Positions 3,340 through 63,994 of a stretch of DNA of 64,000 nt are shown in pieces. The notes beneath the pieces were generated by a model. That model saw nothing but the letters and a program-made list of their open reading frames with translations, made no database searches and was not told the DNA's origin. The stretch covers positions 64,001 to 128,000 of the IMG/VR virus record IMGVR_UViG_3300030329_006380, one strand, 5' to 3'. Every line of letters starts with the position of its first letter. The first letter of the stretch is position 1. The position numbers and the translations under genes were made by a program. This stretch comes from a virus.

Positions 3340-3347
3340 TAATTAGT
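3340..3347 (-). promoter_or_regulatory. Putative late promoter motif ACTAATTA
   Basis: Same core just upstream of the RBS of the holin-like gene. Confidence 0.35.
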
Positions 3348-11020: not shown

Positions 11021-11046
11021 ATTTTTTCCTCTAAACTATTGTCTTT

Positions 11047-12009: not shown

Positions 12010-12023
12010 GTCTTTCTCCTTAA

Positions 12024-12050
12024 TATAAGTAGTTTTTCTATATAATTAGT
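12024..12050 (-). promoter_or_regulatory. Putative late promoter: tandem ACTAATTATA / ACTACTTATA
   Basis: Two near-identical 10-mers in the 67-nt intergenic gap upstream of the AGGAG RBS of 11047..12009. Confidence 0.45.
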
Positions 12051-12076
12051 CATAAAAACCTTATATTTCTTATTTA

Positions 12077-15118: not shown

Positions 15119-15135
15119 CCGTTCACCTCTTCTTC

Positions 15136-42453: not shown

Positions 42454-42468
42454 CTTTTCTCCTCATCA

Positions 42469-42475
42469 TAATTAG
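42469..42475 (-). promoter_or_regulatory. Putative late promoter motif CTAATTA
   Basis: In the AT-rich gap upstream of the spike-like gene RBS (GAGGAG). Confidence 0.35.
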
Positions 42476-42489
42476 AATATATTTAAATA

Positions 42490-43800: not shown

Positions 43801-43809
43801 GATATGTTC

Positions 43810-48339: not shown

Positions 48340-48525
48340 TTAATTATATTGTTCCCCTTCATCAATGTCAAATTTAACTTTAGGAGGGTTAGTTACAACT
48401 ATCTCACTATTCTCATCAATTTCTAATTCAAATCCTTTAAGGGTGCGGGTTACATCTGAGCGCTCCAGTATTGCTTTCTGTAATGCTAGCATAACTGCTC
48501 CCAGTGCTTGATCTGATAATTTCAT
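48340..48525 (-). CDS. Small hypothetical protein (61 aa)
   Basis: Start MKLSDQAL at 48525, with ATGA overlap and GGAG RBS. Confidence 0.65.
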   Translation of the reverse strand: MKLSDQALGAVMLALQKAILERSDVTRTLKGFELEIDENSEIVVTNPPKVKFDIDEGEQYN

Positions 48526-49400
48526 TCTCTCTCCTTTAATTTTTGAAAACAAGAGTTTATCCCCTGTTCAATATTTATTTTTGTTTTCCATCCCAACGAC
48601 TCTAGAGGAGCAATATCTGCTCTGGTCTCCCTTACGTCTCCACTCCTCTCTGATATGCGCGAGAACGTCACATTTGGAAAATATTTATTAACAATCGACG
48701 CTACCTCATTTAGAGATATATTACTACCAGTTGCTGTATCATAGTGGCGACCTTTGAAATTGCCCTTGTAATTCATACAGAAAATATTAGCAGATACAAC
48801 ATCAGAAACATGAATCATATCTCGGCGCTGATCTCCGGCGCCAGTAATATATGGATCTTTCCCCTTTCGAATGTAATCCATAAAATTAGCAATTGCCGTT
48901 GCATATGGACCATCGACCTCCTGATCCTCTGAGTATACATTAAAGTAACGAAGAGATACTGTATCTAAGCCATAAACATCAGAATAGTTTTTACATAAAA
49001 TCTCTGGTATTAATTTTGATGCGCCATATGGGCTGGTTGGCCCATCTCCATTGCCAACTACAGATGAAGAACTAGAGTAAATCACCCTCTTGGCACCATT
49101 CTTTCTGGCGTATTCCAGAATTCGAATTGTGGAAAGAACGTTGTTCTCTAAGACCTCCTCGGGAAATTCCATGCTATATGGAACTCGTGGAATCGCCGCA
49201 AGGTGAAAAATGTACTCTGGTCTGAAGCACTTATATCTTTTGTGATTTAAGTCATGAATTATATCCAGCCCATCTTTTAAATCAATACCTCGAACAACGC
49301 AACCCATCTTCTTCAAGGCTTTGTAAACACGAGATCCAATATATCCTCTATATCCTGTTACTAAACATCTAATAGCCATATAGTCACAATTTATATCCAT
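48522..49400 (-). CDS. NAD-dependent nucleotide-sugar epimerase/dehydratase (extended SDR)
   Basis: VTGYRGYIGS, HLAA, SSSS, YGASK and LRYFNVY. Confidence 0.9.
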   Translation of the reverse strand: MDINCDYMAIRCLVTGYRGYIGSRVYKALKKMGCVVRGIDLKDGLDIIHDLNHKRYKCFRPEYIFHLAAIPRVPYSMEFPEEVLENNVLSTIRILEYARKNGAKRVIYSSSSSVVGNGDGPTSPYGASKLIPEILCKNYSDVYGLDTVSLRYFNVYSEDQEVDGPYATAIANFMDYIRKGKDPYITGAGDQRRDMIHVSDVVSANIFCMNYKGNFKGRHYDTATGSNISLNEVASIVNKYFPNVTFSRISERSGDVRETRADIAPLESLGWKTKINIEQGINSCFQKLKERE

Positions 49401-50005
49401 TTGAAGTTAATATTTTTTAAGTTCTCCTCTTGAACGCGGCGCTTAATCTCTTCTGTGGCCGGCCTCAAGGATGGAATCTTTTTCTCGTGGGTCTCAACAA
49501 AGACATAGGGGATATCATGCAAAGCCCCATTATCCAATAAATGCTCTAGGAGATCACACTCAGCACCCTCGATATCTATTTTTAAGACCTGTATATTCTT
49601 TTTAAATTTATTCTTAATTTTCTGAATTATTCGATTGAGATCAATCGTTTTGACTTCTACATAATCATCAATGTTAACGTTGCTCTTCTCACTCACCAAG
49701 GAACTCCCAGTAGAATATTTTAAAGGATCTTCTGGTGATTTCTGGTGCATATATAACTTTGAAACTCCGTCACTAGAAGAAACTGCCGCTTTAAAACACC
49801 TTACATTGCGATTATTCTTAAATCGATTAGACAATACATCAAAAGCTCTATCATTCGGCTCATAAGCTAACACTATTGCTCCATGATTTATAAATAAATT
49901 TGTAATATCGCCGATATTTGCACCACAATCAATAACAATATCGCCTGAGTTTATAATCACGTCAACGAGGCTATTATCTTTAAGCTTTACTTGCAACACA
50001 CTCAT
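49391..50005 (-). CDS. FkbM-family SAM methyltransferase
   Basis: VIDCGANIG, AYEPN and LKIDIEGAE. Confidence 0.9.
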   Translation of the reverse strand: MSVLQVKLKDNSLVDVIINSGDIVIDCGANIGDITNLFINHGAIVLAYEPNDRAFDVLSNRFKNNRNVRCFKAAVSSSDGVSKLYMHQKSPEDPLKYSTGSSLVSEKSNVNIDDYVEVKTIDLNRIIQKIKNKFKKNIQVLKIDIEGAECDLLEHLLDNGALHDIPYVFVETHEKKIPSLRPATEEIKRRVQEENLKNINFKWI

Positions 50006-50895
50006 TGTTTCTCCCGCGATATCATCATACTTCTGGCTATTTTTTTAGTATACCCGTTGAGCCATGGCTCTAAGTTTTCTCTACAGGTTATAGCTATAGC
50101 ATCTTCGTTTTTAATATTTTCATAAATGCCACGATTGAATCCATCTGTCTGGACGATATGGGTTGGTTTATACCCCAGTTTTGCAAAGAGTTCAGGTTGT
50201 GGTCTGGGCGTTGCAACAATGTAGCTACACCTAAAACCGATATCAAAATATTTTCTCAAAATATTTTCAAAATCATTGTTTTCTGAATATTCTGACGGGT
50301 GGATTTCCAAAAGTATGTGAGTTTCCCCCATATTTTTTTTAAAATATTCATACCCTCCGTTAAAGACTGACACCTCGTGACCCTCAATATCCATTTTTAT
50401 GAAATTGGGGTATCTTCTATTTTGAAAAAATGTTTCTAGTGTGAAGCATTCAACTGTCTCTTCCCTCACACTGTGTTTGGTTTTATTAATACTGTTTAAG
50501 TTTGGCTGTCGTGCAATCCAAAAAGATGATTCCCCATCATGGTCGGATATTAAACACTTATTAAGCTCGCAACGATCTGGTGTTAGATATCCATTTTTTT
50601 TAATATTTGTTTTTAAAAATTTCAAATTATGGGCGTCAGGCTCAATGGCGTAAACAAAGCCAGAAAACCCACTATTCCTGAGCATGATCATTGTAGCGTA
50701 GCCTATATTGGCGCCCAGATCTAAACATGTCATACCAGGCTTGACCGTCTTATTCATGATAGCCATAAAGGCGCACTCTCGTGAAAAAGAAAAACCTTTG
50801 CCATCAGTGTGCGAATAATACAGAGTGCTTCCAATACCGCCATCATTAATGTCTAGAATCCATTTAAAATCATCAACTTCTTTTCTATATAACAT
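50002..50895 (-). CDS. FkbM-family SAM methyltransferase
   Basis: LDLGANIGY, AIEPD and IKMDIEGHE. Confidence 0.9.
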   Translation of the reverse strand: MLYRKEVDDFKWILDINDGGIGSTLYYSHTDGKGFSFSRECAFMAIMNKTVKPGMTCLDLGANIGYATMIMLRNSGFSGFVYAIEPDAHNLKFLKTNIKKNGYLTPDRCELNKCLISDHDGESSFWIARQPNLNSINKTKHSVREETVECFTLETFFQNRRYPNFIKMDIEGHEVSVFNGGYEYFKKNMGETHILLEIHPSEYSENNDFENILRKYFDIGFRCSYIVATPRPQPELFAKLGYKPTHIVQTDGFNRGIYENIKNEDAIAITCRENLEPWLNGYTKKIARSMMISREKQ

Positions 50896-52027
50896 CACTA
50901 CCCCCACTAGAATCTATCACACAATAATTAATATTCTCTTGTTCCAGTGCATAAAAAAGATTCTGATATGAAAAAGGATAATTGTCTAAATGTTGATTTA
51001 TTGAGTTCCCTCTCTTATTCTTTACTCGATTCAAAAGTCTCTCTCGATGAATATACGGCTTTACGTAGCATATAATCGCAGTTGCATCTTTATCCCGCAG
51101 TATCCTTACCCACTCATTAATGTTCGGCTTAAACCCACTAAGCGATTTGTAATTCGGAGCAATATATATCACAGGATAGTCATCTGTAAACGTTGTTATA
51201 TTTTTCCCATATTTTAGCGATCTCCCCTCACCATCAAAAACCTTGTTTTTAATGATATTCTCCCCCTTGTATTCTACTGGTATATTATAAAAATCATGCA
51301 AGAGCCTCGTTTTCCCAGAAGCGCCGGGACCAATTACAATCCCCCTCTTAAGATTTCGAACCGATTCTAAATCACTAAAAAATATTTTTCTTTTTTGAAA
51401 AATGCAAACATATCTCTCTGGGCCCATAAAGCTTTCTTGATTATCACTAGCCTGTTTAATTAACAAGTCATAATTTCTCTCCCGAAGAAAGGAGATTATA
51501 TCCTGTAGGTTTAGATTTCCTTCAAACTTAACTTCCTTACCTATATCTCTCTCGTAGGCGTCATAGAATCCAAATAATGGAGCTTCTATGCAGATCATAT
51601 CATTCGATAGTTCTGCTACTAAGTCCAATATCTTGTAAGGAGTCTGTACGTGATGTAAAATATTTAATAAGAATATACAATCATATGATTCTTTCGTTTC
51701 ACTTAAAAATGGTTCAAGTTTAGATAATATAAAATTTATATTATCGATATTATTTTTTTCAGCAATATCGATTCCAATATTTAATTTTTTATCATCGATA
51801 TCAACCGCGGTACCTTTTAATATTTTATCTTGTATATTAAACAAAATTGCGCCGGCGGCGGTACCCAAATCTAAAACACTTTTATTATTAAAATAATCAC
51901 CACCAAACATATCAATAATATAATTAGGTGTTCTATTTTTGTCGCCATCTTTCCCCATATAAACCCTGTCACCTATCTGTATATGTCTATAGGTTTTTTG
52001 TGGGTATGCTATATTCTTTTTACCCAT
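50885..52027 (-). CDS. Class I SAM methyltransferase fused to a P-loop (kinase-like) domain
   Basis: VLDLGTAAG, AVDID and LNILHH, then IVIGPGASGKT. Confidence 0.75.
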   Translation of the reverse strand: MGKKNIAYPQKTYRHIQIGDRVYMGKDGDKNRTPNYIIDMFGGDYFNNKSVLDLGTAAGAILFNIQDKILKGTAVDIDDKKLNIGIDIAEKNNIDNINFILSKLEPFLSETKESYDCIFLLNILHHVQTPYKILDLVAELSNDMICIEAPLFGFYDAYERDIGKEVKFEGNLNLQDIISFLRERNYDLLIKQASDNQESFMGPERYVCIFQKRKIFFSDLESVRNLKRGIVIGPGASGKTRLLHDFYNIPVEYKGENIIKNKVFDGEGRSLKYGKNITTFTDDYPVIYIAPNYKSLSGFKPNINEWVRILRDKDATAIICYVKPYIHRERLLNRVKNKRGNSINQHLDNYPFSYQNLFYALEQENINYCVIDSSGGSDVI

Positions 52028-52901
52028 CGTTCACCCCATTTTGTTTTTTTATAAATTCTTCTAAATCAATAACATCTTTTGAGTATTTTTCATTAGCAAA
52101 TTTCTTCCATAAATTTATTCTATGATTTAAATTTTTTCGTTGTGAATCTGTAAGCATGTATATTCCATTGTTGATAAAATTGTGATATCTATTTTCCTTT
52201 TCAGTCTTTGTAATGATTGTATTTTGCACTCCCTTGAAGTGCTGTATACACGTTCCATCAAACCAATCAGATTTTGGATTTGATCTGTTCAGATAATCAC
52301 AATGTATTGCCAAAAATCTTATACCTCTTTCATCAAATTTGAAATAGTCATCCCTAGAAGAGGACAACACACTATTAACAAATTTAGAGTCTCTATTTAT
52401 TAAATTTATAAAAGTATACTGGTCATTTTGATTCCTTTTTATATCAGCAATCATATTAGATTCATAATCTTCAAAAAATTTAAGAGCTTTTTCATTTCTC
52501 CTGACAAGCATAACTCCACTGTTAATCCACTGTGGAAGACTATGCCTCCAAGTAAAAATAAAGTCTGCGGCGTTCTCCTCCGCCATTTTTATAAAGCTAT
52601 CAATATTTTTCAACAAAGCAGTATCGTTATCCATAAACAAAACCCATTCACTATCTGCTTCTTTAAAACCCTGATTCCAGCAAATAATTTTTAAACTCCC
52701 AGGTGAAATTCTAACAAATCCTATTTCATCTCTAAGCTTATTAATTCTATCTTCATCTGTTGGAGTGTCTTTTCCAACAACATTGATTTTCATTTCTGGA
52801 TAAATAGCCTTTACACTATTTTTTAATGATCCGACATAAGGATCACAGCAAGTTCCGAATGAACTTGCTACAACTGATATTTTATCTTTTGTTATTGCCA
52901 T
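52020..52901 (-). CDS. GT-A fold glycosyltransferase (nucleotide-diphospho-sugar transferase-like)
   Basis: WVLFMDNDT (DxD), INSGVMLV, NDQ and HFKG. Start MAITK at 52901 with GGAG RBS. Confidence 0.75.
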   Translation of the reverse strand: MAITKDKISVVASSFGTCCDPYVGSLKNSVKAIYPEMKINVVGKDTPTDEDRINKLRDEIGFVRISPGSLKIICWNQGFKEADSEWVLFMDNDTALLKNIDSFIKMAEENAADFIFTWRHSLPQWINSGVMLVRRNEKALKFFEDYESNMIADIKRNQNDQYTFINLINRDSKFVNSVLSSSRDDYFKFDERGIRFLAIHCDYLNRSNPKSDWFDGTCIQHFKGVQNTIITKTEKENRYHNFINNGIYMLTDSQRKNLNHRINLWKKFANEKYSKDVIDLEEFIKKQNGVNDG

Positions 52902-52902
52902 A

Positions 52903-53499
52903 TTATTTTCTCCAGTTATTATTTTTGTTAAGGTATTCATTTGGATTATAAGACTTAATCGGTGTTTTCCAGTCGCCATAATAAAATGTCAAATATTCTT
53001 CTGCGGGACCAGGAAGAATAAAATCTCTGCCCCTGAAATTAAATTTCTCGCCATTGTTATAATATTTATTAGGGAATTTCTGTTGTAAGTCACATCGATA
53101 TCCCATGCCATTATCATAAAGAGCACTAGTTGCAATTTTGATGCCGTGTTTAAAAAATGCCATTTTGCTAGTTTTTCCCCTGAATGTGGCGCGGGTGATG
53201 AATCCATGACTAATAAACGTCTCCTTAATTTCTTCAAAACGTGGTACATAAACCTCAGAAAAAATCTCAATATCAATTTCATCATCCCATGAGATAAAAT
53301 CCCCATCGCGATAAAACCCTAAAGCGGTACCGCAAGACAAAAAATATTTTATTCCCAATTCTCTAAAGATATCATCAACCTCTAAAAGTGCTAACGATGC
53401 TGCTTCCCTATCCATACCTTTGTTGGGTACATGATAATTGTGCCTCACTTTTCGCCATTCCTCAGTTGATAAAAGACTTATTATTTCATTTTGTTTCAT
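52903..53499 (-). CDS. licD: LicD-family phospho(no)transferase 1
   Basis: YFLSCGTALGFYRDGDFISWDDEIDI and YLTFYYGDW. Confidence 0.9.
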   Translation of the reverse strand: MKQNEIISLLSTEEWRKVRHNYHVPNKGMDREAASLALLEVDDIFRELGIKYFLSCGTALGFYRDGDFISWDDEIDIEIFSEVYVPRFEEIKETFISHGFITRATFRGKTSKMAFFKHGIKIATSALYDNGMGYRCDLQQKFPNKYYNNGEKFNFRGRDFILPGPAEEYLTFYYGDWKTPIKSYNPNEYLNKNNNWRK

Positions 53500-54086
53500 A
53501 TATACAGACTCCTGTTAAAGTAATTTTCTTTCGACGGAGTATTCCAATCTTTACCATATGTATGTTCTACATATCCCAGTACATCAGGAGCCTGGAAATT
53601 CATATTTTTAAAAATTATATTTTGACCTCTCTCGTATAAACTGGCTGGCCATTTGTACCTATACCTATAGCGTATTTTTTTGACCGGATTTAAATAAAGG
53701 GCAGCGATGCCGACTTTTTCACCAGAATGATAAGCATTAATCTTCATATTGGGGTACTCTCTAATCCCCCTAGTGATATATCCTAAGTGAGTTAATTTGT
53801 TTTTTATAGTATCAAATTTAGGTATCAATTGTTCTGCAAAGACGTCCATATCTACATCGGGATCCCACTGGATGAAGTCGCCTTCTCTTAGATAACCCAA
53901 TAGAGTGCCGCCGGAAAGAAACAAATCTACACCTTCCTCTGATAATATTTTTTTAAAATTTGCCATTATTTCCATTCTTGCGTTGAAATTGTAATTTGGA
54001 AACGAATTCAAGAGCGCATCTTTGTTCTTCTTTTTATATCTAATCCACTCCGAATGTGACATACTGCTAATCTCAATATTATTCAT
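53496..54086 (-). CDS. licD: LicD-family phospho(no)transferase 2
   Basis: FLSGGTLLGYLREGDFIQWDPDVDM and YVEHTYGKDW. Confidence 0.9.
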   Translation of the reverse strand: MNNIEISSMSHSEWIRYKKKNKDALLNSFPNYNFNARMEIMANFKKILSEEGVDLFLSGGTLLGYLREGDFIQWDPDVDMDVFAEQLIPKFDTIKNKLTHLGYITRGIREYPNMKINAYHSGEKVGIAALYLNPVKKIRYRYRYKWPASLYERGQNIIFKNMNFQAPDVLGYVEHTYGKDWNTPSKENYFNRSLYI

Positions 54087-54486
54087 AATCCTCTTTTATT
54101 CTCTCAATGATAGCGGTCGTAGAGACATGCTTAGTTCTAGGTACATATTTCATAATACCCATTTTTATTGGTACTGCCTGCTGTCTTAGGAGTTCGGGCG
54201 TGATATCATCGCCCCTAACAACATAGTCAATTTTGTTCTCCCCTAAGAACTGTTCGGTCATGATAAGAGGTGCTGCCTCTATTACTTCATCGACATATCT
54301 ACAAGCGCGGACCAATTCATATCTCTGTGACTCATTGATGATAGGTACTCTTTTATAACTAGCAATATCAGCATCTGAGTGGACACCAACAATCAAATAG
54401 TCTCCTTGTTCGCGCGCCCTCTTAATCAGATTTAAGTGACCCAAGTGGAATAAATCTGCTGCCATATCAGTGTATATACGTATCAT
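54079..54486 (-). CDS. HxGH-type cytidylyltransferase (TagD/ECT/Fom1-CyTase family)
   Basis: ADLFHLGH, LIVGVHSD, CRYVDEVI, VVRGDD and RTKHVSTT. Confidence 0.9.
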   Translation of the reverse strand: MIRIYTDMAADLFHLGHLNLIKRAREQGDYLIVGVHSDADIASYKRVPIINESQRYELVRACRYVDEVIEAAPLIMTEQFLGENKIDYVVRGDDITPELLRQQAVPIKMGIMKYVPRTKHVSTTAIIERIKEDYE

Positions 54487-54487
54487 C

Positions 54488-55471
54488 TTATACTGTGTCC
54501 TTAAAGGCTTTAACTATTTTTTTAAATTTGATATCAAAATCCACGCTCATTGTCGCGACTCTGAAGCTACGGTCTACGCCATCAACACCCGAGTAAATAA
54601 CAATCTTGCGACTCAATAGAAAATCATGTAATTTTTTGTATCCCATTCTAGGATGTTTAAATGCAATTATTGAATTCGCCGGATTAGAATTAATACACTC
54701 GATTCCGATAGATGACATAGCGGATATTAATTTTTCTCTTCGAAGGTTAAATATTTTTTCATTTTCCAAGCTTTGGTCAACAGTATATTCTAAAGCATAT
54801 ACCGATTGTGTTGGCAGCGTAAAAGGCAAATGACCCAATTGATACTTCGAAAGATTTCCATAATAAGATCGATCAAAAATCTGCATCTCTTTATTCCACA
54901 ACACTATTCCTAAGCCCGGAGTTGACTGTAGGCACTTGTTACTACAAAAAGACAATGCCGCTATCCTATGACCAAGTTTTTTATAGTCGGAGGCGCCAAA
55001 AGCAGAGGTGGCATCAATAATAAATTTAGCCTCTGGGTAGATCTTGCACATCTTCTCTAGAGAATAATGCTCCCCTGTAGAAGTCTCATTTTCAACATAA
55101 TAAACATACTTAACATCTCTATTTTCAACCAAATCATCAACTATTCTAGAGTTGACCTGCGCGCACTGAATGTTATATGTTTTGAAAATTTCCATTGCAC
55201 GTTGACCATACTTGCCGGCGTTGACAACAAGCGTATCATTTGGTGCCAGTGAAGATATCATGGCTTCCATTGCCGCTGTTCCGGATCCACAAAGAATTGC
55301 GATTCGGCCGGCCGATGAAAATTTTACAGCACTTAAAAGTTTCTCCTGTAGTGATCTGAGTACTGCCTTGAAGGTGTCTTCTCTATGACAAATATCACTG
55401 CCCAGCCACTGCTTTATTTTAGTCAGAAACCTAGTATTTGTAGGTCCGGGATTCAATAGGATATCAGACAT
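54488..55471 (-). CDS. aepZ: Class V PLP aminotransferase, 2-aminoethylphosphonate transaminase (AepZ/PhnW-like)
   Basis: LLNPGP, GSGTAAMEA, NAGKYGQR, ETSTG, IDATSAFG and SNKCLQSTPG (PLP lysine); neighbours the Ppd genes. Confidence 0.8.
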   Translation of the reverse strand: MSDILLNPGPTNTRFLTKIKQWLGSDICHREDTFKAVLRSLQEKLLSAVKFSSAGRIAILCGSGTAAMEAMISSLAPNDTLVVNAGKYGQRAMEIFKTYNIQCAQVNSRIVDDLVENRDVKYVYYVENETSTGEHYSLEKMCKIYPEAKFIIDATSAFGASDYKKLGHRIAALSFCSNKCLQSTPGLGIVLWNKEMQIFDRSYYGNLSKYQLGHLPFTLPTQSVYALEYTVDQSLENEKIFNLRREKLISAMSSIGIECINSNPANSIIAFKHPRMGYKKLHDFLLSRKIVIYSGVDGVDRSFRVATMSVDFDIKFKKIVKAFKDTV

Positions 55472-55928
55472 TCAAAAAACTCCGGAGATTCTCAATATTC
55501 TCTTTACATGAGAGGCCAACACGAGGAGTTTTACCATCATTGGAAATTTTTATAATCTCGTTAACGCCAACATAATTAAGCTCCAAGTCAGAGCATTTAT
55601 ACTCGCCAACTGACTCGTGGCAACCATTATCCAGTACGTAAATATATAGATTACCGAGGGCCTCATCCCTAATGGTATGGGTAATCCCCAGATGCATAAG
55701 AAGTGATGCATCACCCACAAATACTACAACATCTTTATCAATATTCCTTGCAGCCCCCAGCCCTATTGCCGGTGAAAGACCCATACTGCCTTGCATATAA
55801 AGAATATTTTTATTATCCGGGTATATATTATATATTGCGCGGGACAAATACCCAGTATTCGTAATATATAAAGAATTCTCTCCGTGTCTTTCAAAAATAT
55901 TTTTTATCGCTTCCTCTCTACTTAGCAT
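55464..55928 (-). CDS. ppd: Phosphonopyruvate decarboxylase, C-terminal (ThDP-binding) subunit
   Basis: TGYLSR, MQGSMG, and VGDASLLMHLG...VLDNGCHESVG (GD-x-NN-type ThDP motif). Confidence 0.8.
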   Translation of the reverse strand: MLSREEAIKNIFERHGENSLYITNTGYLSRAIYNIYPDNKNILYMQGSMGLSPAIGLGAARNIDKDVVVFVGDASLLMHLGITHTIRDEALGNLYIYVLDNGCHESVGEYKCSDLELNYVGVNEIIKISNDGKTPRVGLSCKENIENLRSFLNV

Positions 55929-56313
55929 TATTTTCACCACATATCAAAATATAATTTGAGTAACCAATTAAATCCAAGATCTTTTGATCAACCTCCCCCA
56001 TCACTTTGTGTTGAGGAAGCGTGTGTCTGTGTCCAATTATCAACAATGGTTCAATACCAAAGGGGATACACAAACTAGTCAAGGGATTAATACAATTTCC
56101 CAGTCCAGAATTCTGTAAATATACACATGGTTTCTTGCCGGCTAGGGCTGCGCCGAAAGCTATAGCTACCGCCTGCGATTCATGTACCGCTATTATATTT
56201 GGCACACCAGATGCAAGGATATCATTTTGGAAATTCTTTAAAGCACTGTCCGGAACACCGGTGAAAAAATCGTATCCCTGTTTAGATAATCTTGAATAGA
56301 GGTCATGATCCAT
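55918..56313 (-). CDS. ppd: Phosphonopyruvate decarboxylase, N-terminal (PYR) subunit
   Basis: FFTGVPDS, HESQAVAIAFG, VYLQNSGLGNCINPLTSL, IIGHR and QHKVMG. Confidence 0.8.
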   Translation of the reverse strand: MDHDLYSRLSKQGYDFFTGVPDSALKNFQNDILASGVPNIIAVHESQAVAIAFGAALAGKKPCVYLQNSGLGNCINPLTSLCIPFGIEPLLIIGHRHTLPQHKVMGEVDQKILDLIGYSNYILICGENNAK

Positions 56314-57169
56314 ATTTATCCTGATTCTCCTTCATTTCATCCACAGCAATCAAATCAAAGATGGTTGTCATGGGAACCACAAAATCATTTCCGGCAGAAA
56401 GAGTACCCTCTTTAATAATAGTCGTAAACATAGATTCTAGAGTGTTAACTGTAGCCCTGACGGAGTAATTAGCATAGATTGCCAAGCTTACACCACAGTT
56501 CCTCATCTGTTCCGTTGTCATCTGGTTGTATGTGGTGGGAACAATAACCAAAGGCGTTGTCAACCCCTCTTTGTGATATCGATCGCAAAATTTTAAAACT
56601 TCATCCGGTGTCTTATTCTTGTTGTGGATCAGGAAGCCGTCGCAACCAGCATCAGTATATGCCTTTGCTCTCTCGATGGCGACGTCAATGCCTCTGTTTT
56701 GTATGAGAGCCTCTGTACGTGCAATCACCGCGAAACCTTCCTTGTTATTCTTCTCCAAGGCCGCTTTAATCTTTCCAACTGTCGTAGGTGTTTTTTCAAG
56801 TACTTTCTTCATACCATAAAAAGAACATCTCTTAGGCGAAGGGTTATCCTCGATGCACATCGCCCATGCACCAGCCTTAGAATATTCACGTGCCATCCGG
56901 ATAGTGTTGATAGCACTTGGACCACCTTCATCTGCGTCAACTAAAATAGGTATATTCACTCGATCTGCAATCTTGCTAATCGCGTCTGCATAGTCAGCTA
57001 CATTCAAAATTGATGCATCTGGGAATCTGTTCCATGCGTGCATCTCAAAACTAGAAAGCCAAATCGCGTCAAATCCTGCATTTTCGGCCAACTTTGCTAT
57101 CATTGCATTACTTGCACCGCAAGCCAAACTTAATTTTTCATCTCTCAATAAATCTTTTATGGTTCTCAT
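56303..57169 (-). CDS. pepM: Phosphoenolpyruvate mutase (ICL/PepM superfamily)
   Basis: GFDAIWLSS, PD, PILVDADEG, IEDNPSPKRCS, IARTEALI, GCDGFLIH, PLVIVPTTY and IYAN; immediately upstream of ppd and the AEP transaminase. Confidence 0.78.
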   Translation of the reverse strand: MRTIKDLLRDEKLSLACGASNAMIAKLAENAGFDAIWLSSFEMHAWNRFPDASILNVADYADAISKIADRVNIPILVDADEGGPSAINTIRMAREYSKAGAWAMCIEDNPSPKRCSFYGMKKVLEKTPTTVGKIKAALEKNNKEGFAVIARTEALIQNRGIDVAIERAKAYTDAGCDGFLIHNKNKTPDEVLKFCDRYHKEGLTTPLVIVPTTYNQMTTEQMRNCGVSLAIYANYSVRATVNTLESMFTTIIKEGTLSAGNDFVVPMTTIFDLIAVDEMKENQDKYGS

Positions 57170-57179
57170 ATCACTTCCC

Positions 57180-58070
57180 TTATTCCGTGACGAAGTTTAA
57201 ATACTCTTTTGCTACGTTATGCATATTATAGCAAGAATCATAGGAATTGTCAAGTTTATTATTAAAGTTCAAGACCTTGGGGGAATATAAATCTATTGGT
57301 GAAAAATCCCATTCCTCTTCTTCAATAATAATTGCATTAGGGCCTGCTATTTCCTTGGTCCCTCCGGAGGATGAACATATCACCCTGCACCCGCACGCGC
57401 GGGCGTCGACAACAACATTTGGACAATGATCTAGCCATGCCAAGTGAATAAAATACTTTGAAGCTTTGTAGATTGAAATTAACTGCCTCTGATTTAAGTG
57501 GCCCAAGTATTTAATTCTAGGATGTTTAATCGGTTCTTCGTTAGTTGAACCAGCAACCAAAAGACAATCTCTTGCGCCCGAATGCTCTAAAAAATATCTT
57601 ATATTTTCTGATAATCTTTTGTGAGGGCGCCACGATGAAGCGCATACCCAAATATTATCATAATTCTGCGAGAACTCATCAATAGGAGAAACCTGATCAA
57701 TTAATTCTAAATCTGCGCCATTGTGAATGACCCTGTAGTTCTTGTGTGGGCCAAACCACCTAAAAATAAGATCTTTGTTGAAAGTGGACTGAAATATTAC
57801 CCCACTAGAATGTCTGTATGTTCGAAGAATATTACTATTCTTTATATCATAATTCTCTTGTGTATTAAAATAAATGCCATCTAATCTCTGAAAAGTGGGC
57901 ATAGAATTAATGTTTTTACGATGGGACTCGATAAAACATAGGCTGATATCGGAGATTCTTAGGTCGGTAACCTCACACCCCAAGATATTGAATTGATTTT
58001 TTAATTTTTGAGCAAATGAATTCGGGCCGCTGTTGCTACCCAAGTTAACATTTTCTAGGCATATTTTCAT
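57180..58070 (-). CDS. GT4-family (GT-B) glycosyltransferase
   Basis: IHNG, WRPHKRL and DHCPNVVVDARACG (variant E-x7-E motif). Confidence 0.85.
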   Translation of the reverse strand: MKICLENVNLGSNSGPNSFAQKLKNQFNILGCEVTDLRISDISLCFIESHRKNINSMPTFQRLDGIYFNTQENYDIKNSNILRTYRHSSGVIFQSTFNKDLIFRWFGPHKNYRVIHNGADLELIDQVSPIDEFSQNYDNIWVCASSWRPHKRLSENIRYFLEHSGARDCLLVAGSTNEEPIKHPRIKYLGHLNQRQLISIYKASKYFIHLAWLDHCPNVVVDARACGCRVICSSSGGTKEIAGPNAIIIEEEEWDFSPIDLYSPKVLNFNNKLDNSYDSCYNMHNVAKEYLNFVTE

Positions 58071-59713
58071 AAAGACTTTAATCTCTCATATTGAGACTTC
58101 TTTCTTATCTGTGCTTCGATTCGTAACTGATCTCTCCGTTGCACCCGATCAACAGAAAGAGGATTTAGGCGATTGTAAGTATATACAATCTGATCGATCG
58201 ATTTATAGTGTGTTTGGCCGGCCATCTCTAACATAGGATACATCAAGGCTCGATCAAAAGTACATTGGTAAAATTTACCATCTTCATCTTTTAAATCTGA
58301 TTTGTCAATCTTATCAAAAAGTTTTTTTCGAAAAGTTCTAAGGTGGGAAAAAACATTTGGGTGACCCGAACCATCGTAATATTTTCTTAAGTTACCATTC
58401 CACATTGCATCATCAGAGTTAGCCGATTTAACTACCCGACATGTCGTTGATTCTATGTATGTTCCTGCGGTAATCCATGTCTCCTTATCATATTCCTCAT
58501 TAAGCCTAGCTAACACATTAAAACTAGATAACCAGTCATCGCCATCGAGCAACACTATAATTGAGTCATCACGGACTTGCTTTATAGCATTGTTAATATT
58601 ATACAGAGCCTTGTAATTCTTCTTATTCCTTATAATATTTAAACGATCTTCTTTGTCATAAAGATCTTTTATCTCAGAAACCAAATCATATGTGGCATCC
58701 TCTGAATCATCGTCGATGTAAATAATATTAAAATTACCATATTTTTGGTTTAGTGCAGATAAAACATTTTTTTCAACCCATGGGGCGCAATTATATGCAG
58801 GTATAATAATCGTAAAATGGTTTTTCTCTAATAAGTTATTGCCTATAGGAGTGTCAATGCTGGATATCTCTTCTATCTTTTTCCAGAATGTTAGCGGTCT
58901 AGATGATAGATACTCTTCTATCTCCCTCGTTGACGTTGAACTAAACCATGTCTCATCTTTATGTTGAACATGGTCATTTATAATCAATTCCTTCCCTAAT
59001 AATTTAGCCTCTATTACCATTCTAGGGCAAGTATCTGATCCAATTGGCAAAAAAAGCAACCCCCTGCATGCTTGCATTTTTTTTAAAAACTCTTTATGAG
59101 GTAGATCCCCAACTAATTCATACTCTAGATTATTTTCTATCGCATACTCAATCGCTTCTCTAACCCCCTTGATTTTTGAACTGGAATTCATTATAAGCCA
59201 TTTATTAGTATGACCCTTCTTCTCTTTCAAAAGAGAAATATATTTCAAAGTGTCTAAAGAGAAAATAGAACTGAGTACATAACTCTCTTTGTTCTTCAAG
59301 AAGGGAAATTTACTATGATATTTATCTCTCTGTCCCTGTGACATCCACCACAATGATTTTGCACCCTTGAAAAAGATAGATATTAGTTTACCATGTGATT
59401 CTTTGTGGCATTCGCATTTCCCCTCGGCCATTTCATGCAACTCTTCACATCGAAATTTACAAAATTTATAATCGTATTCAATCACTGAATATTCTAAATT
59501 TTTATATGCGTGCAAAAGAAGCGATGTATCTAAATTATAAAAATTTCCAAAAACCCAGTGATAATCCTTATAAGAATGCATATGCTTTTTGGTACAATGA
59601 TGTGAGTGGAGTTTAATAACTGGGAGCGGGCATTTCTCTATCAACGCCTCAGAAGTTAATTCTGCTCCACCTGCATGATCTTCTTTGAAGAAGTCCGAGA
59701 CAAATACAATCAT
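58067..59713 (-). CDS. Two-domain glycosyltransferase: GT-B N-terminus plus GT2 (GT-A) C-terminus
   Basis: GGAELT and DTCPRMVIEAKLLG; then IIIPAYN, YIDDDSED and LLDGDDW. Confidence 0.85.
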   Translation of the reverse strand: MIVFVSDFFKEDHAGGAELTSEALIEKCPLPVIKLHSHHCTKKHMHSYKDYHWVFGNFYNLDTSLLLHAYKNLEYSVIEYDYKFCKFRCEELHEMAEGKCECHKESHGKLISIFFKGAKSLWWMSQGQRDKYHSKFPFLKNKESYVLSSIFSLDTLKYISLLKEKKGHTNKWLIMNSSSKIKGVREAIEYAIENNLEYELVGDLPHKEFLKKMQACRGLLFLPIGSDTCPRMVIEAKLLGKELIINDHVQHKDETWFSSTSTREIEEYLSSRPLTFWKKIEEISSIDTPIGNNLLEKNHFTIIIPAYNCAPWVEKNVLSALNQKYGNFNIIYIDDDSEDATYDLVSEIKDLYDKEDRLNIIRNKKNYKALYNINNAIKQVRDDSIIVLLDGDDWLSSFNVLARLNEEYDKETWITAGTYIESTTCRVVKSANSDDAMWNGNLRKYYDGSGHPNVFSHLRTFRKKLFDKIDKSDLKDEDGKFYQCTFDRALMYPMLEMAGQTHYKSIDQIVYTYNRLNPLSVDRVQRRDQLRIEAQIRKKSQYERLKSL

Positions 59714-59714
59714 C

Positions 59715-60986
59715 TTATACCTCTGAGAGTTCTGCAAATAGCTTGTCTATCTCTTCATCCCTCTCTAGCTGATCACCCATGATAGCTTCGACCATCTTCT
59801 TGTTGATCTTTTGCACCTCAAAGGCCTCTAGAGTATAATCCTTTAGTTTCTCAGCCTGCTTCTCATACATCCCCAAATTTTTATATACATCGCGCATTTT
59901 CATCTTTGCGCTGCCCTCCCTAGGATAACACCACATTGAACCCTTCTCTAGGACACCCTTCCAAACTGCTTTTTTAGGTATTGGTTTAATATCATAAGAC
60001 ACGCTGGCGAAGAAGGGGCGCTTCTTCTTTTTCCCATTCTTCTTAACAGTGTCCATAAAGAGGAAATCATTTTGACCGCTCCACTCGGTAGTCACCACAG
60101 GTAAGCCATGATACACTGCCTCAAAAATCGGCAACCCATAACCCTCGCCATGACTTAAAGATATTAAAGCTTTGATTTTTTCATGATTATATAGATATGA
60201 CATTTGACCCTCTGAAAGGGAGCCATGAAGTAGATGTACCTTGCACTTTCTCTTGCTATATTCTTCATTCGCCAATAAATTTTTAATCTTTTCTCTAAAG
60301 TGGTAATAATCCATCAAAGAATTGCTTGCAATATTACATTTAAGCACTAATCCCACCTCTTGATCGATAAATTCTTCAACAAACCACTTAATAGTGTTCT
60401 CTAAGTTTTTACGAGGGGACCATTGGGCTACTACTAGAAAATTAAAATCATACTCCAGATCAATCGTCACCTCCTCTGGTTCAAAAAATCGCACTGGGTA
60501 TCCAACGACCTCTATAGGGGTGTTGCATTTGAAATTAGGAATCGTCTGGCCGGTTTGAGGGTCTCTCGCTTCATAAGAAGTTGATTCATAAACATTCTTT
60601 GCATGATTCGAAACAACTATAATCTTGTCCATGCCCATGGATTTCTCAATCCACTGTGGAGCGACTTTTGTTGTCTCGATGCCCGCGGTGTATCCAATAT
60701 TAATTGGTGCTAGGCGCTCCCATTCGTTAGGTATTGTCACTTGAAGAGATATATCGAAATGCTTTGAATTCTGCATGTACACAGCCGTTTTCTGAATTAA
60801 GTGATCAATCCATTGTCTCTCTTCAGTGTCTCTCCATTGCCAACTGGTGCGGCCCCAATTTAAAGTATGTACATATATATCAAAAATCTCTTCATGTTCT
60901 CGGAGGGCCCGCAAAGCAAATCTGGCCTGCTCACCATACCCACTCTGACTTAATATGGGTCCTCTCACTAATATCTTTTTTCTCAC
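59715..60986 (-). CDS. GT4-like glycosyltransferase
   Basis: GPILSQSGYG, RKN and EGYGLPIFEA. Confidence 0.85.
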   Translation of the reverse strand: MRKKILVRGPILSQSGYGEQARFALRALREHEEIFDIYVHTLNWGRTSWQWRDTEERQWIDHLIQKTAVYMQNSKHFDISLQVTIPNEWERLAPINIGYTAGIETTKVAPQWIEKSMGMDKIIVVSNHAKNVYESTSYEARDPQTGQTIPNFKCNTPIEVVGYPVRFFEPEEVTIDLEYDFNFLVVAQWSPRKNLENTIKWFVEEFIDQEVGLVLKCNIASNSLMDYYHFREKIKNLLANEEYSKRKCKVHLLHGSLSEGQMSYLYNHEKIKALISLSHGEGYGLPIFEAVYHGLPVVTTEWSGQNDFLFMDTVKKNGKKKKRPFFASVSYDIKPIPKKAVWKGVLEKGSMWCYPREGSAKMKMRDVYKNLGMYEKQAEKLKDYTLEAFEVQKINKKMVEAIMGDQLERDEEIDKLFAELSEV

Positions 60987-60994
60987 AGTATCTC

Positions 60995-62257
60995 CTATAA
61001 TGTTGTGTAGCGATATGATTTATAATTTTCCCTAGAGTCCCAAGAACCATGGGTTTCATGTACTCGAATCAAAAGATTCTCCCAAGATTTTGCATACTTA
61101 TCATATCCATATTCACGGAGCACATGTTGTCTTCCCTTTTCCCCCATTTCTTCGCGCTGTTCCTTCGTCATATTGAAGAAATCAAGCAATGCGTCAATAA
61201 AATCTTCCTTGTTGAGGCGATCTTCGTAAATCCATGGAACTTCTTGCGATCCTATCACAGCTTTCGAGCTAGGTTCGAGGCCTATCCCATACCACTCTTT
61301 ACCATTCGTAACTTGTTGCTGTAATCCGCCGGTCATATTCACTATAATGGGTGTACCAGCAAAAAGAGATTCCAGTGTGGATAACCCAAACCCCTCAGCA
61401 TCAGCAATATTAATTGTACAATCAGCAGCATTATAAATCATATTTAATGCTGCTGGTGGAAGTTTTTCCATGGATAATAAAACTTGCCCTTTGTTCATCC
61501 CTAATTCATGAATTATCGCATGTAAAGATTGACCATGCTGGTCATTGGGATCAGTGTGCATTAAGAGCATTGCTTTATCATGGCCAACTTTGTCTAAAAA
61601 TTCTTTAAACCAAAATATCAAAGTTCCAGACTGCTTTCGCCTAGCATTTCTATTGTTCCAGAAAAACACTAGTTTATCCTCTCCCTTTCCATGGAAAAAA
61701 TTTTCTTTTCGAAATTCTTGTATCTCTTCTTTCGAAAGTTTTTTGAATTCTTGGTCATTGGCCGTATGAGGTATATATTCAACATCAACAGAGGGCGACA
61801 CATTTCGTACAATATCGTCTGTGACTTTAGATATCGTCACTACCATATCATTTGATTCATAAAATGGCGCATTAAATTTAGGATATGGGTAGTTATCCCA
61901 TACATGATAATAAACCATAGGGCATAATGGCCGTATCTCATCTGAGATTTCCCATAGCCATGCCCAAAATCGAGGATCTGTCATAAACCACAACATATCC
62001 GGACGATGAATTCGGAGCATCGATCGAACCAGATCTGCGTTCCCATATCCATCAACTGGGTGGATTAATAGATCATCTCCCCATTTATCTGTTTTTTGTG
62101 GTGAATAATTCTCATGTTTCATTGCCCCCGCAATGCACACAAAGGAAAACTTACCGGTACCCAATAAGTGTTCAATCATATATCTCGTCTGAGTTCCCAC
62201 TCCAGAGGGGGCAAACGGGTGGTCACTCAACACAAGTACCTTAATTTTTTTGGACAT
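60995..62257 (-). CDS. GT4-like glycosyltransferase
   Basis: SGVGTQ, PHT, RNARRK and EGFGLSTLES. Confidence 0.88.
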   Translation of the reverse strand: MSKKIKVLVLSDHPFAPSGVGTQTRYMIEHLLGTGKFSFVCIAGAMKHENYSPQKTDKWGDDLLIHPVDGYGNADLVRSMLRIHRPDMLWFMTDPRFWAWLWEISDEIRPLCPMVYYHVWDNYPYPKFNAPFYESNDMVVTISKVTDDIVRNVSPSVDVEYIPHTANDQEFKKLSKEEIQEFRKENFFHGKGEDKLVFFWNNRNARRKQSGTLIFWFKEFLDKVGHDKAMLLMHTDPNDQHGQSLHAIIHELGMNKGQVLLSMEKLPPAALNMIYNAADCTINIADAEGFGLSTLESLFAGTPIIVNMTGGLQQQVTNGKEWYGIGLEPSSKAVIGSQEVPWIYEDRLNKEDFIDALLDFFNMTKEQREEMGEKGRQHVLREYGYDKYAKSWENLLIRVHETHGSWDSRENYKSYRYTTL

Positions 62258-62260
62258 GTT

Positions 62261-63028
62261 TCACCTAGGGCAGTGCGAGGTTCTATAAAACTCGCAATTT
62301 TCACACTTAAGTTTGTTTTTGATAAAATTTTTATTTTTTATATTATAGACTGCTTTCTTAACTTTGTCAAGAGAATTCTTAACTCTCTTGGGTCCACTAG
62401 TAACCCGAAGAAACTCAACTTTATCTTTCTTGGCGGTCCTCTTAAGAAGAGCAAAATACGTTTCAATATCTTTCATATCTATATTATATTTCTTAGCATA
62501 ATAATTTTTATATAAAACAATCTGGTAGATGACCATAGGATCTGCCTTTTTTCGCGAGTCCCAGCCCCACGAACATGTCTTCCAATCGATTATATGATAT
62601 TTCTGATCGGGTGTTCTGATTATTAAATCGATAAATCCCTTGAAGATATAATCTACATCTTCCATCTTCTCATACAACCTTTCCTCAACGCCAATAACCT
62701 CGAAGACACCAAAATGTTTCTTTAATTCCGGTATCGCTAATGAAACTAACGTGGTGCCCTGCTTCAAGAATTCAACAAACCGCTCCTCTTCAACCTCTTC
62801 TGGTATTTTGTTGATCTCTCGTAAAAAAGATTCACAAAAATAATCTTGCATATCCGCCTGTTTAATCTCCTTCAGGAGATTTTTTTCGCAAGATTCATGC
62901 AGAGCGGAACCAAATGCTGTAAATATATTCCCCTTGAAGGGTCTGAGGCCATCTAAATTTACTAATTTATGATAAAATGGACAGAAATCCCAATTTTTTA
63001 ACTCAGAAAAAGATATATGTTTTTTCAT
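62261..63028 (-). CDS. PD-(D/E)XK nuclease, Cas4/RecB/AddB-like
   Basis: HISFS...CPF, GSALH, GFIDL...IIDWKT, QIVLY and C-terminal CENC...C (1+3 Cys). Confidence 0.85.
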   Translation of the reverse strand: MKKHISFSELKNWDFCPFYHKLVNLDGLRPFKGNIFTAFGSALHESCEKNLLKEIKQADMQDYFCESFLREINKIPEEVEEERFVEFLKQGTTLVSLAIPELKKHFGVFEVIGVEERLYEKMEDVDYIFKGFIDLIIRTPDQKYHIIDWKTCSWGWDSRKKADPMVIYQIVLYKNYYAKKYNIDMKDIETYFALLKRTAKKDKVEFLRVTSGPKRVKNSLDKVKKAVYNIKNKNFIKNKLKCENCEFYRTSHCPR

Positions 63029-63342: not shown

Positions 63343-63994
63343 TTCCTAATTTCTCCTCTAAAAATTTTATTTTTTTGTACAGTACTGGACAAAGCAACTG
63401 TATATAGGGTCTCTCACCATATTTCGTAAAATACTCTTCAAAACCAACGGCGAAATATTCGCGAATTGACGTGACAGAATAAGGCCCAATAAACAATCCG
63501 GTAGTAAAATTTGTCAACTTTTCATATCCGATTTCTTTGTACAAAAGGTTATCAAAGTCTACGGAGTATTCCAACTCCATAAACTCATCTGTTGGTATAT
63601 TATATCCATGTGCAGTCAAAATGTCAAGTAATTTATTTCTTTTTCCTAAAAATTCTGCTCTTATGTAGCCATCTCCGTAAATTTCCTCTGAATATCGCTC
63701 CTCAATCATGTGAGCGATCTCATGAACAATATCATCAATAAGGTCAGCGTCACTATCTTGATCATTGGTGATATGGAGGGTACCATTCTCATAAAAAGCG
63801 TTAACCTGTTTATTTTCGAACTCCTCGGAGTAACCAATAATTATAGACTCTAAGCCCAAAAAGAAATTATCCGGCAACATTTTCCGGATTTTTGTAAATA
63901 TGTCAATAAAATCGATGCCCACAGGAAGGGGGTCTTTAATTTGGACTTGAACTTTTCCGCCCAATACGCTAAAACTCCCTGCGTTTCGCTTCAT
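63335..63994 (-). CDS. Zincin-like metallopeptidase; may start beyond the window edge
   Basis: HEIAH (HExxH) plus downstream REYFAVGFEEY. The frame stays open to position 64000. Confidence 0.65.
   Translation of the reverse strand: MKRNAGSFSVLGGKVQVQIKDPLPVGIDFIDIFTKIRKMLPDNFFLGLESIIIGYSEEFENKQVNAFYENGTLHITNDQDSDADLIDDIVHEIAHMIEERYSEEIYGDGYIRAEFLGKRNKLLDILTAHGYNIPTDEFMELEYSVDFDNLLYKEIGYEKLTNFTTGLFIGPYSVTSIREYFAVGFEEYFTKYGERPYIQLLCPVLYKKIKFLEEKLGNA

Follow-up and report, generated by a model that had tools for sequence, protein, structure and literature searches.

A candidate 2-aminoethylphosphonate cassette within a glycan-building island of an uncultured marine T4-like phage

Bacterial gene clusters for surface tailoring with 2-aminoethylphosphonate (AEP), such as aepXYZ of Bacteroides fragilis and those surveyed in PMC6697681, convert phosphoenolpyruvate (PEP) via phosphonopyruvate and phosphonoacetaldehyde to AEP, which is activated as CMP-AEP and passed to a glycan, and glycosyltransferase genes are clustered with them. 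For the succession of PEP mutase (Ppm, here PepM), cytidylyltransferase and LicD, a bacterial precedent was described by Rice et al. 2019 (PMC6697681). A locus to which the same chemistry can be ascribed lies in a 64,000-nt stretch of viral DNA, hereafter the window, which comprises bases 64001-128000 of the 136,483-bp IMG/VR record IMGVR_UViG_3300030329_006380 (CheckV completeness estimate 62%). An earlier note, made from the sequence alone, had read in it a complete phosphonate pathway. We find, as described there, pepM, the alpha and beta subunit genes of a phosphonopyruvate decarboxylase (Ppd; ppdA and ppdB), an AEP transaminase gene (aepZ), a cytidylyltransferase gene and two licD genes in pathway order on the minus strand, with glycosyltransferase genes on both flanks.

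Compared with the bacterial AEP clusters, the phage locus has a lytic-type T4-like carrier, a mutase whose lid reads EDN..KRCS where the canonical motif is EDKx5NS, a Ppd split into chains of 131 and ~154 aa, an activating enzyme of family PF01467 in place of the LicC-type PntC (PF12804), and no membrane, export or lipid-carrier genes in the island around it. The parallel with B. fragilis drawn in the earlier note is apt for the chemistry but not for the components, as the decarboxylase is heteromeric and RhiEF-like, the activator is of the ethanolamine-phosphate cytidylyltransferase (ECT)/Fom1 type and the mutase has a Cys in its lid ('Cys-lid' PepM). The chemistry is of a known kind; what appears to be undescribed is its carriage by a marine bacteriophage family, together with a Cys-lid mutase and a minimal split decarboxylase.

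A large part of the dissolved organic phosphorus in the sea consists of phosphonates, which also fuel aerobic methane production, yet only some of their producers are known (Acker et al. 2022, PMC8931226). Neither 364 huge phages nor the RefSeq viruses yielded a Ppm to Li and Horsman 2022 (PMC8942020), whose one viral AEP pathway was in a giant-virus metagenome-assembled genome (MAG). In that nucleocytoplasmic large DNA virus (NCLDV; GCF 881) a Ppm-Ppd-AEP core likewise stands beside aminosugar genes and was read as a viral phosphonoglycan pathway; both cases are in silico. The giant-virus case is one eukaryotic-virus contig whose Ppm has the canonical motif and is fused to Ppd, whereas here a bacteriophage family carries a stand-alone, non-canonical Ppm and a split Ppd. 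PHROGs v4 holds no family for pepM, ppdA, ppdB or aepZ, and in the literature we met no described bacteriophage with such a pathway, as the earlier note had supposed; related items were a mention of an auxiliary metabolic gene in a sponge phage bin and PEP-mutase fusions in Borg elements. Two of the surveys demand the exact EDKx5NS motif (Rice et al. 2019, PMC6697681; Li and Horsman 2022, PMC8942020), and the third allows up to two motif changes only if the adjacent Ppd passes the trusted cut-off of TIGR03297 (Acker et al. 2022, PMC8931226). Phage producers of this kind would have been missed by such surveys because their PepM lid departs from the motif and the split Ppd lies far below that cut-off (104.5 and 87.6 bits for the two subunits, against 312.5). 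If the locus functions as predicted, it would show that the EDKx5NS motif and the TIGR02320 and TIGR03297 cut-offs overlook real producers.

The reading that we regard as probable is that of a phage-borne phosphonate cassette within a glycan-building island, in which AEP would be made, CMP-activated and put on a glycan. In this route the PepM-like enzyme would convert host PEP to phosphonopyruvate, and the thiamine pyrophosphate (TPP)-dependent decarboxylase PpdA/PpdB would take this on to phosphonoacetaldehyde, drawing the unfavourable equilibrium forward. A class-V transaminase would then yield AEP and the ECT-like cytidylyltransferase CMP-AEP, from which the two LicD transferases would move the aminoethylphosphonyl group to two hydroxyl positions of a glycan; the glycan itself would be the work of the island's five soluble glycosyltransferases, with three methyltransferases and an epimerase to trim it. 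All cassette genes are intact, with their cofactor, metal and remaining catalytic motifs in place except for the PepM lid. That the cassette makes a C-P compound of some kind is, in our judgement, likely. The five-gene core pepM-ppdA-ppdB-aepZ-cytidylyltransferase spans ~3.1 kb (54079-57169).

The PepM-like protein resembles PEP mutases in sequence and in fold. Among NCBIfam models TIGR02320 ranks first (230.6 bits), ahead of phosphonopyruvate hydrolase (TIGR02321, 177.6) and PrpB (158.9), and the best PDB sequence match is the PEP mutase of Streptomyces platensis (5UNC, 1e-58), with a phosphonopyruvate hydrolase (2DUA, 2e-47) and the PEP mutase of Mytilus (3e-41) also matched. An AlphaFold2 (AF2) model (pLDDT 96.8) superimposes on 5UNC with a template modelling (TM) score of 0.94 and a root-mean-square deviation of 1.4 Å; the scores are 0.92 for Mytilus PEP mutase and for phosphonopyruvate hydrolase, and 0.83-0.87 for lyases. 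Residues W37, D51, D78, D80, E107, K113, S116, R151 and H182 are conserved and correspond, in this order, to Mytilus W44, D58, D85, D87, E114, K120, S123, R159 and H190, so that apart from two lid positions the Mg2+ ligands and phosphoryl-binding residues are kept. The protein thus shares with canonical PEP mutases (Mytilus edulis 1PYM/1M1B; S. platensis 5UNC; TIGR02320) the fold, the Mg and phosphoryl residues, the lid Lys and Ser and an adjacent Ppd partner. It differs from them in the lid, in its score below the NCBIfam cut-off and in its place in a basal grade of the family: in a lyase-rooted tree, EDN lids form a basal grade beneath an EDK..NS crown, and the phage sequences form one well-supported clade within that grade.

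The lid is not an oddity of one sequence. EDNPSPKRCS is found in all 120 relatives listed, down to 66% identity, with rare variants at single non-catalytic positions, and among 1.84 billion cluster representatives the nearest PepM 50%-cluster representatives likewise read EDN..KRCS. Several of these neighbours carry, as a fused partner, an NTP_transf_3 cytidylyltransferase or a TPP (Ppd) domain, and in GTDB genomes a Ppd gene lies within 10 kb at 17 or more of 32 KRCS-lid loci, often with an AEP transaminase as well. On the phage, the end of pepM and the start of ppdA share 11 nt, and ppd adjoins pepM at all related loci. Of all the cassette genes, pepM is also the best conserved, with non-synonymous divergence (dN) of 0.08-0.30 while synonymous divergence (dS) is saturated. 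We infer that the Cys-lid PepM is catalytically active as a PEP mutase, since genomic context, clade fusions, the modelled fold and the other catalytic residues argue for it.

The decarboxylase consists of separate PYR and PP subunits, with PF02776 on alpha and PF02775 on beta; the cofactor-activating Glu (VHES) is in alpha and the Mg-TPP motif GDAS...LDNG in beta. The same two-chain PYR/PP arrangement is found in RhiE/RhiF, the heteromeric Ppd of the Bacillus subtilis rhizocticin pathway (PDB 9IZ3/9IZ4; Nakamura et al. 2024, as given in PMC12141560), which is the best solved relative of the phage enzyme: the Ppd alpha subunit 9IZ3_A is the best PDB match of alpha, and 9IZ3_B the sole PDB match of beta. 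The phage chains are ~50 and ~30 residues shorter (131 and ~154 versus 181 and 186 aa), and their predicted pathway leads to AEP rather than to an antibiotic; they may be the smallest TPP decarboxylase pair. The split, which could have been a frameshift or a sequencing error, is neither: it is kept in every relative, including MAGs of Solirubrobacterales, and has a solved precedent. Substrate preference is less clear-cut for one subunit than for the other. Alpha scores 104.5 bits with Ppd against 70 with ComD (E 6e-30 versus 2e-19), and beta 87.6 with Ppd against 85.7 with the beta subunit of sulfopyruvate decarboxylase (ComE); gene context leans to Ppd.

For the transaminase, the best family is TIGR03301 (165 bits, cut-off 360.8) and the top PDB match is 6PD1, the AEP-transaminase half of a Treponema PntC-AEPT fusion, followed by PhnW structures (9KK8, 1M32 and 7E7G are in the list); the context S-N-K-C of the pyridoxal phosphate-binding lysine is intact, as expected of a class-V aminotransferase. 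The cytidylyltransferase is well above its PF01467 cut-off (82.2 versus 21 bits), retains the motifs HLGH (HxGH) and RTKHVSTT (RTxxxSTT), and matches human ECT (3ELB, 8e-45) and the CyTase domain of Fom1 (5X3D, 2e-14). It is predicted to be a CMP-AEP synthase, a sensible role because phosphoethanolamine is the O-ester analogue of AEP. As a compact cassette with an Asn-to-Cys lid mutase and a small split decarboxylase, the five genes would be well suited to assay.

Several observations weigh against the proposed route. The lid EDNPSPKRCS does not match the canonical mutase motif EDKx5NS, which the earlier note had overlooked: Asn takes the place of canonical Lys116 and Cys that of Asn122, and a lyase-like K-R-C results. 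In PEP mutases the canonical lid Asn helps to hold the migrating phosphoryl group. The TIGR02320 score falls short of the cut-off of 319.55 bits, all four core enzymes lie under their NCBIfam equivalog cut-offs, and a literature search turned up no assay of any member of the Cys-lid clade. Further along the pathway, the Pfam matches of the two LicD proteins span only ~35 N-terminal profile positions, and LicD was undetected in several relatives that retain the five-gene core, which makes the transferase step less secure than the synthesis steps. Finally, the virion proteins showed no Ser/Thr-rich acceptor tags or mucin-like tract; the best 30-residue window reached 57% Ser+Thr, in one 400-aa protein.

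The lid substitutions and the low family score would also be expected if the enzyme were a lyase, hydrolase or decarboxylase of the isocitrate lyase (ICL) superfamily that uses the lid Cys, so that the product would be a non-phosphonate amino-alcohol or a sulfonate head group (for instance taurine, reached from sulfopyruvate by way of sulfoacetaldehyde with a ComDE-like decarboxylase), or another compound with no C-P bond. The near tie of the beta subunit between phosphonopyruvate and sulfopyruvate decarboxylase points the same way. Yet sequence and fold are nearest to PEP mutase and phosphonopyruvate hydrolase rather than to lyases, the lid Cys is followed by Ser as in Ppm and not by the Gly-His of lyases, and the alpha subunit favours Ppd. 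Fusions within the clade are to phosphonate-type cytidylyltransferases and Ppd domains, and AEP transaminases adjoin. To our knowledge, no ICL-family enzyme synthesizes sulfopyruvate, which also counts against a sulfonate product. We consider a non-mutase function rather unlikely.

The final steps of the proposed route depend on the LicD pair. Both proteins exceed the PF04991 cut-off of 22.6 bits (35.3 and 46.6 bits) and contain a DxD motif, and the first has a GT-LG...W-D-DxD motif. The AF2 model of the second (pLDDT 92) finds its best fold match in the catalytic domain of FKRP (E 1e-8, TMq 0.62-0.64). FKRP transfers ribitol-phosphate from CDP-ribitol onto a glycan. We infer that the LicD pair are AEP transferases with CMP-AEP as the donor, the basis for the donor being the adjacency of the genes.

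It is also conceivable that the cassette ends in a soluble phosphonate small molecule, whether antibiotic-like, a signal or a CMP-activated intermediate, and that the neighbouring glycosyltransferase and methyltransferase genes form a separate system. At three related loci (L011-L013) a B12-binding radical-SAM enzyme directly follows the cytidylyltransferase, an order that resembles the Fom1/Fom3 logic of fosfomycin synthesis, and the match of the cytidylyltransferase to Fom1 and the core-bearing loci with undetected LicD fit this picture. Against it, the two licD genes overlap the cytidylyltransferase gene and each other (8 and 4 nt) with a glycosyltransferase gene directly next, the cassette stands amid sugar genes at every locus seen, an AEP-making transaminase is a hallmark of surface-decoration pathways (PMC6697681, PMC8942020), and peptide ligases, exporters or resistance genes were not seen. 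A soluble end product is, on balance, distinctly unlikely.

If AEP is transferred to a glycan, the site and the acceptor of assembly become of interest. A hydropathy scan of the 16 island proteins gave no transmembrane-like segment, the only two open reading frames (ORFs) with multiple transmembrane segments on the 136-kb record lie outside the island, and the island has no flippase, polymerase or polyprenyl-phosphate primer transferase among its genes; for these reasons assembly is expected to be cytoplasmic. The membrane components of Gtr-type and Wzx-Wzy systems (GtrA, GtrC, Wzx, Wzy) were likewise not met in the island, and one GT2 domain matches a GtrB-like PHROG weakly. We propose from the gene content that assembly would take place either on one of the phage's own proteins or on a host precursor located at the membrane's inner face. 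As a rough apportioning, virion proteins are the leading acceptor candidate, though short of an even chance, a host envelope glycan or glycolipid comes a little behind, and some other acceptor is the least favoured of the three while retaining an appreciable share. The earlier note had suggested that the product might armour or disguise virions, remodel the host surface or modify DNA; modification of DNA is the least likely of these and keeps a small residual possibility; no gene supporting DNA hypermodification was seen beside the cassette.

Virion glycosylation is said to have been described in 2023 by Freeman and colleagues in the mycobacteriophages Che8, Corndog and Myrna. Those systems have in common with the present island soluble glycosyltransferases and methyltransferases that lack export machinery and lie beside virion and lysis genes; they differ in that the island is placed behind sigma-70-type promoters, not in a structural operon, and that no Ser/Thr tag was found. 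We know of no phosphonate or LicD step in the mycobacteriophage systems. The product of the island would be the first phosphonate-decorated glycan credited to a bacteriophage, and one could then ask whether the phage coats itself or re-dresses its host.

A catabolic role, in which the phage would help its host to obtain phosphorus from AEP or phosphonopyruvate by a PhnW-type transaminase and a phosphonopyruvate hydrolase, is very unlikely. Phosphonopyruvate hydrolase is the second-best family of PepM (TIGR02321, 2DUA), and the phage carries PhoH and other phosphorus-related genes; however, known AEP catabolism makes no use of a Ppd, a cytidylyltransferase or LicD, PhnX, PhnA/PhnY and C-P lyase genes were not seen in the island, and the gene order parallels the biosynthetic order.

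The island is truly phage-resident. The record carries genes for the terminase large subunit (TerL), portal, a gp23-like major head protein, tail sheath and baseplate wedge, together with DNA polymerase, ribonucleotide reductase (RNR), DnaB helicase, GroEL and PhoH, and nearly all its genes are on the minus strand; the earlier note was right to call it an unambiguous phage genome. Ten contigs from separate Tara assemblies encode an identical PepM and keep the gene order unchanged over both island borders, from the DUF2490-protease-PhoH side to the amidase gene side; an ENA Tara Oceans scaffold and two single-run Logan assemblies are among these sources. TerL shares a contig with the cassette in three records, and a baseplate gene does so in two. 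Because island and both flanks recur in independent Tara Oceans assemblies, a cellular fragment mis-joined to a phage contig, or a mis-binned bacterial contig, is practically negligible as an explanation: syntenic islands are found on related viral contigs with TerL or baseplate genes, no PepM among bacterial and archaeal species representatives is more than 52% identical to the phage protein, and the one feature noted on the other side is the lower G+C of the LicD, glycosyltransferase and methyltransferase part (0.33-0.35, against about 0.39-0.40 elsewhere). Mis-assembly, feared in the earlier note, is effectively refuted.

By capsid and terminase, the closest cultured relatives are Flavobacterium phage immuto and Microcystis phage Mel-JY01. 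Since these are only ~37-45% identical, the record is assigned to an uncultured, distant marine myovirus of the T4 superfamily, a jumbo phage of roughly 200 kb or more. As host clues, the record offers one tRNA-Arg(TCT) only, and the cyanophage marker psbA was not found across its 136 kb.

Many relatives of the cassette come from Tara Oceans data, and some exact sequences are present on dozens of contigs. Viral contigs with 63-87% PepM identity show matching island synteny, and the five-gene core is retained in every IMG/VR and metagenome relative long enough to show it. Among relatives dS is saturated and dN is 0.08-0.56, which shows that purifying selection acts on the core in several lineages of marine phages; at least two phage backgrounds are represented. 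One locus (L016, 8441-20870) has the core in a background different from that of the present record. The downstream tailoring part is variable among relatives, and LicD is detectable in some loci only.

A conserved AEP pathway in ocean phages would place viruses among the phosphonate producers. Whether marine phages, via infected cells or particles, are uncounted direct producers of phosphonoglycans that use the Cys-lid clade, which all motif-filtered surveys of phosphonate producers drop, is a tentative proposal, which we hold to be possible but doubtful; if true, part of the high-molecular-weight phosphonate pool of the ocean would be virus-driven, and infection could switch on a phosphonate phenotype in the host.

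The island comprises 16 closely packed minus-strand genes over 14 kb (48522-62257; Table 1), bounded by a PD-(D/E)XK nuclease gene and, on the other side, by a group of small genes and then amidase/lysin-like genes. Within the seven-gene run the junctions are overlaps of 11, 11-23, 8, 8 and 4 nt and one 1-nt gap, which makes the translational coupling proposed in the earlier note plausible; the ppdB start is probably the ATG at 55928. G+C is 0.33-0.35 in the LicD, glycosyltransferase and methyltransferase part (window 50000-54000), against 0.38-0.40 in the pepM-to-cytidylyltransferase core and the remaining phage, which fits the low-G+C part being the variable, more recently exchanged portion of the island. 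The N-terminal 300 aa of the 556-aa glycosyltransferase form a virus-typical domain that resembles viral clusters, some with GT1. For the 380-aa S-adenosylmethionine (SAM) methyltransferase, sugar O-methylation and AEP N-methylation are the predicted candidates.

Table 1 Genes of the island and the pepM-proximal promoter, in window coordinates, with best family support; L numbers denote related loci.
Feature	Position	Strand	Support
GT4 glycosyltransferase, 420 aa, first gene of the island	60995..62257	-	PF00534 1e-10; 59% in L009/L010
GT4-like glycosyltransferase, 423 aa	59715..60986	-	PF00534 8.5e-7; 47-51% identity in L009/L010
Two-domain glycosyltransferase, 556 aa	58067..59737	-	C-terminal GT2, PF00535 5e-24 at residues 309-477
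GT4-like glycosyltransferase, 296 aa	57180..58070	-	PF00534 5e-9; 52% identity in L010
Sigma-70 promoter TTGACA-17-TGcTATAAT	57225..57253	-	~55 nt upstream of pepM
PEP-mutase-like enzyme, 288 aa, lid EDNPSPKRCS (Cys-lid PepM)	56303..57169	-	PF13714 2e-41
ppdA, predicted phosphonopyruvate decarboxylase alpha (PYR), 131 aa, RhiE-like	55918..56313	-	TPP_enzyme_N; TIGR03297 6e-30
ppdB, predicted phosphonopyruvate decarboxylase beta (PP), 154-158 aa, RhiF-like	55464..55928/55940	-	TPP_enzyme_C; TIGR03297 8e-25
Predicted AEP transaminase (AepZ/PhnW family), 327 aa	54488..55471	-	TIGR03301 2.6e-48
Cytidylyltransferase, ethanolamine-phosphate/Fom1 CyTase type, 135 aa	54079..54486	-	PF01467 5e-23
LicD-family phosphotransferase 1, 196 aa	53496..54086	-	PF04991 1.7e-8
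LicD-family phosphotransferase 2, 198 aa	52903..53499	-	PF04991 6e-12; predicted model resembles FKRP
GT-A-like nucleotide-diphospho-sugar transferase, 293 aa	52020..52901	-	PF03407 and PF00535, both weak
SAM methyltransferase, 380 aa	50885..52027	-	PF13847 1.6e-11; orthologue in L011
FkbM-family methyltransferase, 301 aa	50002..50907	-	PF05050 3.7e-17
FkbM-family methyltransferase, 204 aa	49391..50005	-	PF05050 5.9e-16
NAD-dependent sugar epimerase/dehydratase, 292 aa, last gene of the island	48522..49400	-	PF01370 1.3e-44

Seven perfect sigma-70 sites (TTGACA-N17-TATAAT) occur on the record, each of them in coding-strand orientation. The window has four (48343-48371, 57225-57253, 62342-62370 and 63599-63627), where 0.07 would be expected; the others are at 128870-128898, 30383-30411 and 11733-11761 of the record. 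Five of the seven fall between 112 and 129 kb of the record and none in the structural module. Of these five, one lies ~85 nt before the first glycosyltransferase gene, one ~55 nt before pepM and one just after the epimerase gene; GroEL is also preceded by such a site. The T4-type late promoter TATAAATA is not enriched (12 occurrences versus 7.7 expected), and none stands ahead of island genes. Because perfect sigma-70 sites bracket the island, the pattern suggests that it is transcribed early, by unmodified host polymerase, and points tentatively to a host whose promoters are of the canonical sigma-70 type, not to a member of the Bacteroidota. Bacteroidota promoters differ from the canonical sigma-70 type. 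Both points are leads only, as conservation of the pepM-proximal site was found on same-strain contigs only and not in more distant relatives.

Related loci differ in what surrounds the core. In L011 (79% PepM identity) a 541-aa B12-binding radical-SAM enzyme and two sulfotransferases are inserted in the island (13786-15411 and neighbours), so that phages of this type may make a phosphonate methylated at C or P and a glycan that is sulfated. The background of L016 includes a DEAD helicase, a peptide deformylase, a CCA-adding-type enzyme, an Apyc1-like nuclease and an AAA_24/DUF669 module, and its core is surrounded by GT11, HpcH/HpaI-like, CTP_transf_3 and DegT genes, that is, nonulosonic-acid-type sugar genes. 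The closest cellular counterpart of the phage cassette is a cluster in soil actinobacterial MAGs of the Solirubrobacterales (L028-L030, ~10001-14166), which has the order pepM(EDNPFPKRCS)-ppdA-ppdB-aepZ-cytidylyltransferase-LicD at 49-63% identity.

Among 50,697 phage records, blastn with the island gave no match and tblastn with PepM only weak ones (identity at most 34%): two contigs labelled 'Acinetobacter phage' that are probably bacterial (annotated prpB), two faecal fragments lacking annotation and Vibrio phage Va2. The cultured phage Va2 (MW073017; L072, 1143-7248) encodes a very divergent 435-aa 'phosphoenolpyruvate mutase' whose lid, EDKNPSAKIN..., is not a clean EDKx5NS; this gene and that of a 367-aa TPP-binding protein lie on either side of the RNR genes, and no transaminase, cytidylyltransferase or LicD gene was found near them.

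Upstream of the island, positions 128674-136443 of the record hold a metabolic block with PIN-PhoH, an opposite-strand trypsin-like protease, DUF2490, a protein with five transmembrane segments and a weak PHO4 phosphate-transporter match, a glutamine-synthetase-like protein, orotidine monophosphate decarboxylase, an AsnA/class-II-synthetase-like protein and adenylosuccinate lyase. On the other side of the island (window 41407-46772), proteins of 432, 557 and 436 aa have a common domain, matching one region in relatives; amidase/endolysin-like domains are present in two of the three, and they may be tail-associated lysins that adjoin the island. A neighbouring 348-aa protein (41407-42453) has no family match. 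Two giant ORFs (20033-28771 and 32495-41389; 2912 and 2964 aa) stand on either side of the baseplate-wedge gene. They are presumed to encode fibre proteins or proteins associated with the baseplate, and have essentially no Pfam match beyond a weak Laminin_G_3 in one. At 3347-6508 of the window, a single 1053-aa ORF joins a calcineurin-like phosphoesterase (Mre11/SbcD-like) to an AAA_23/SMC_N domain (Rad50/SbcC-like) and looks like a fused gp47/gp46-type recombination nuclease.

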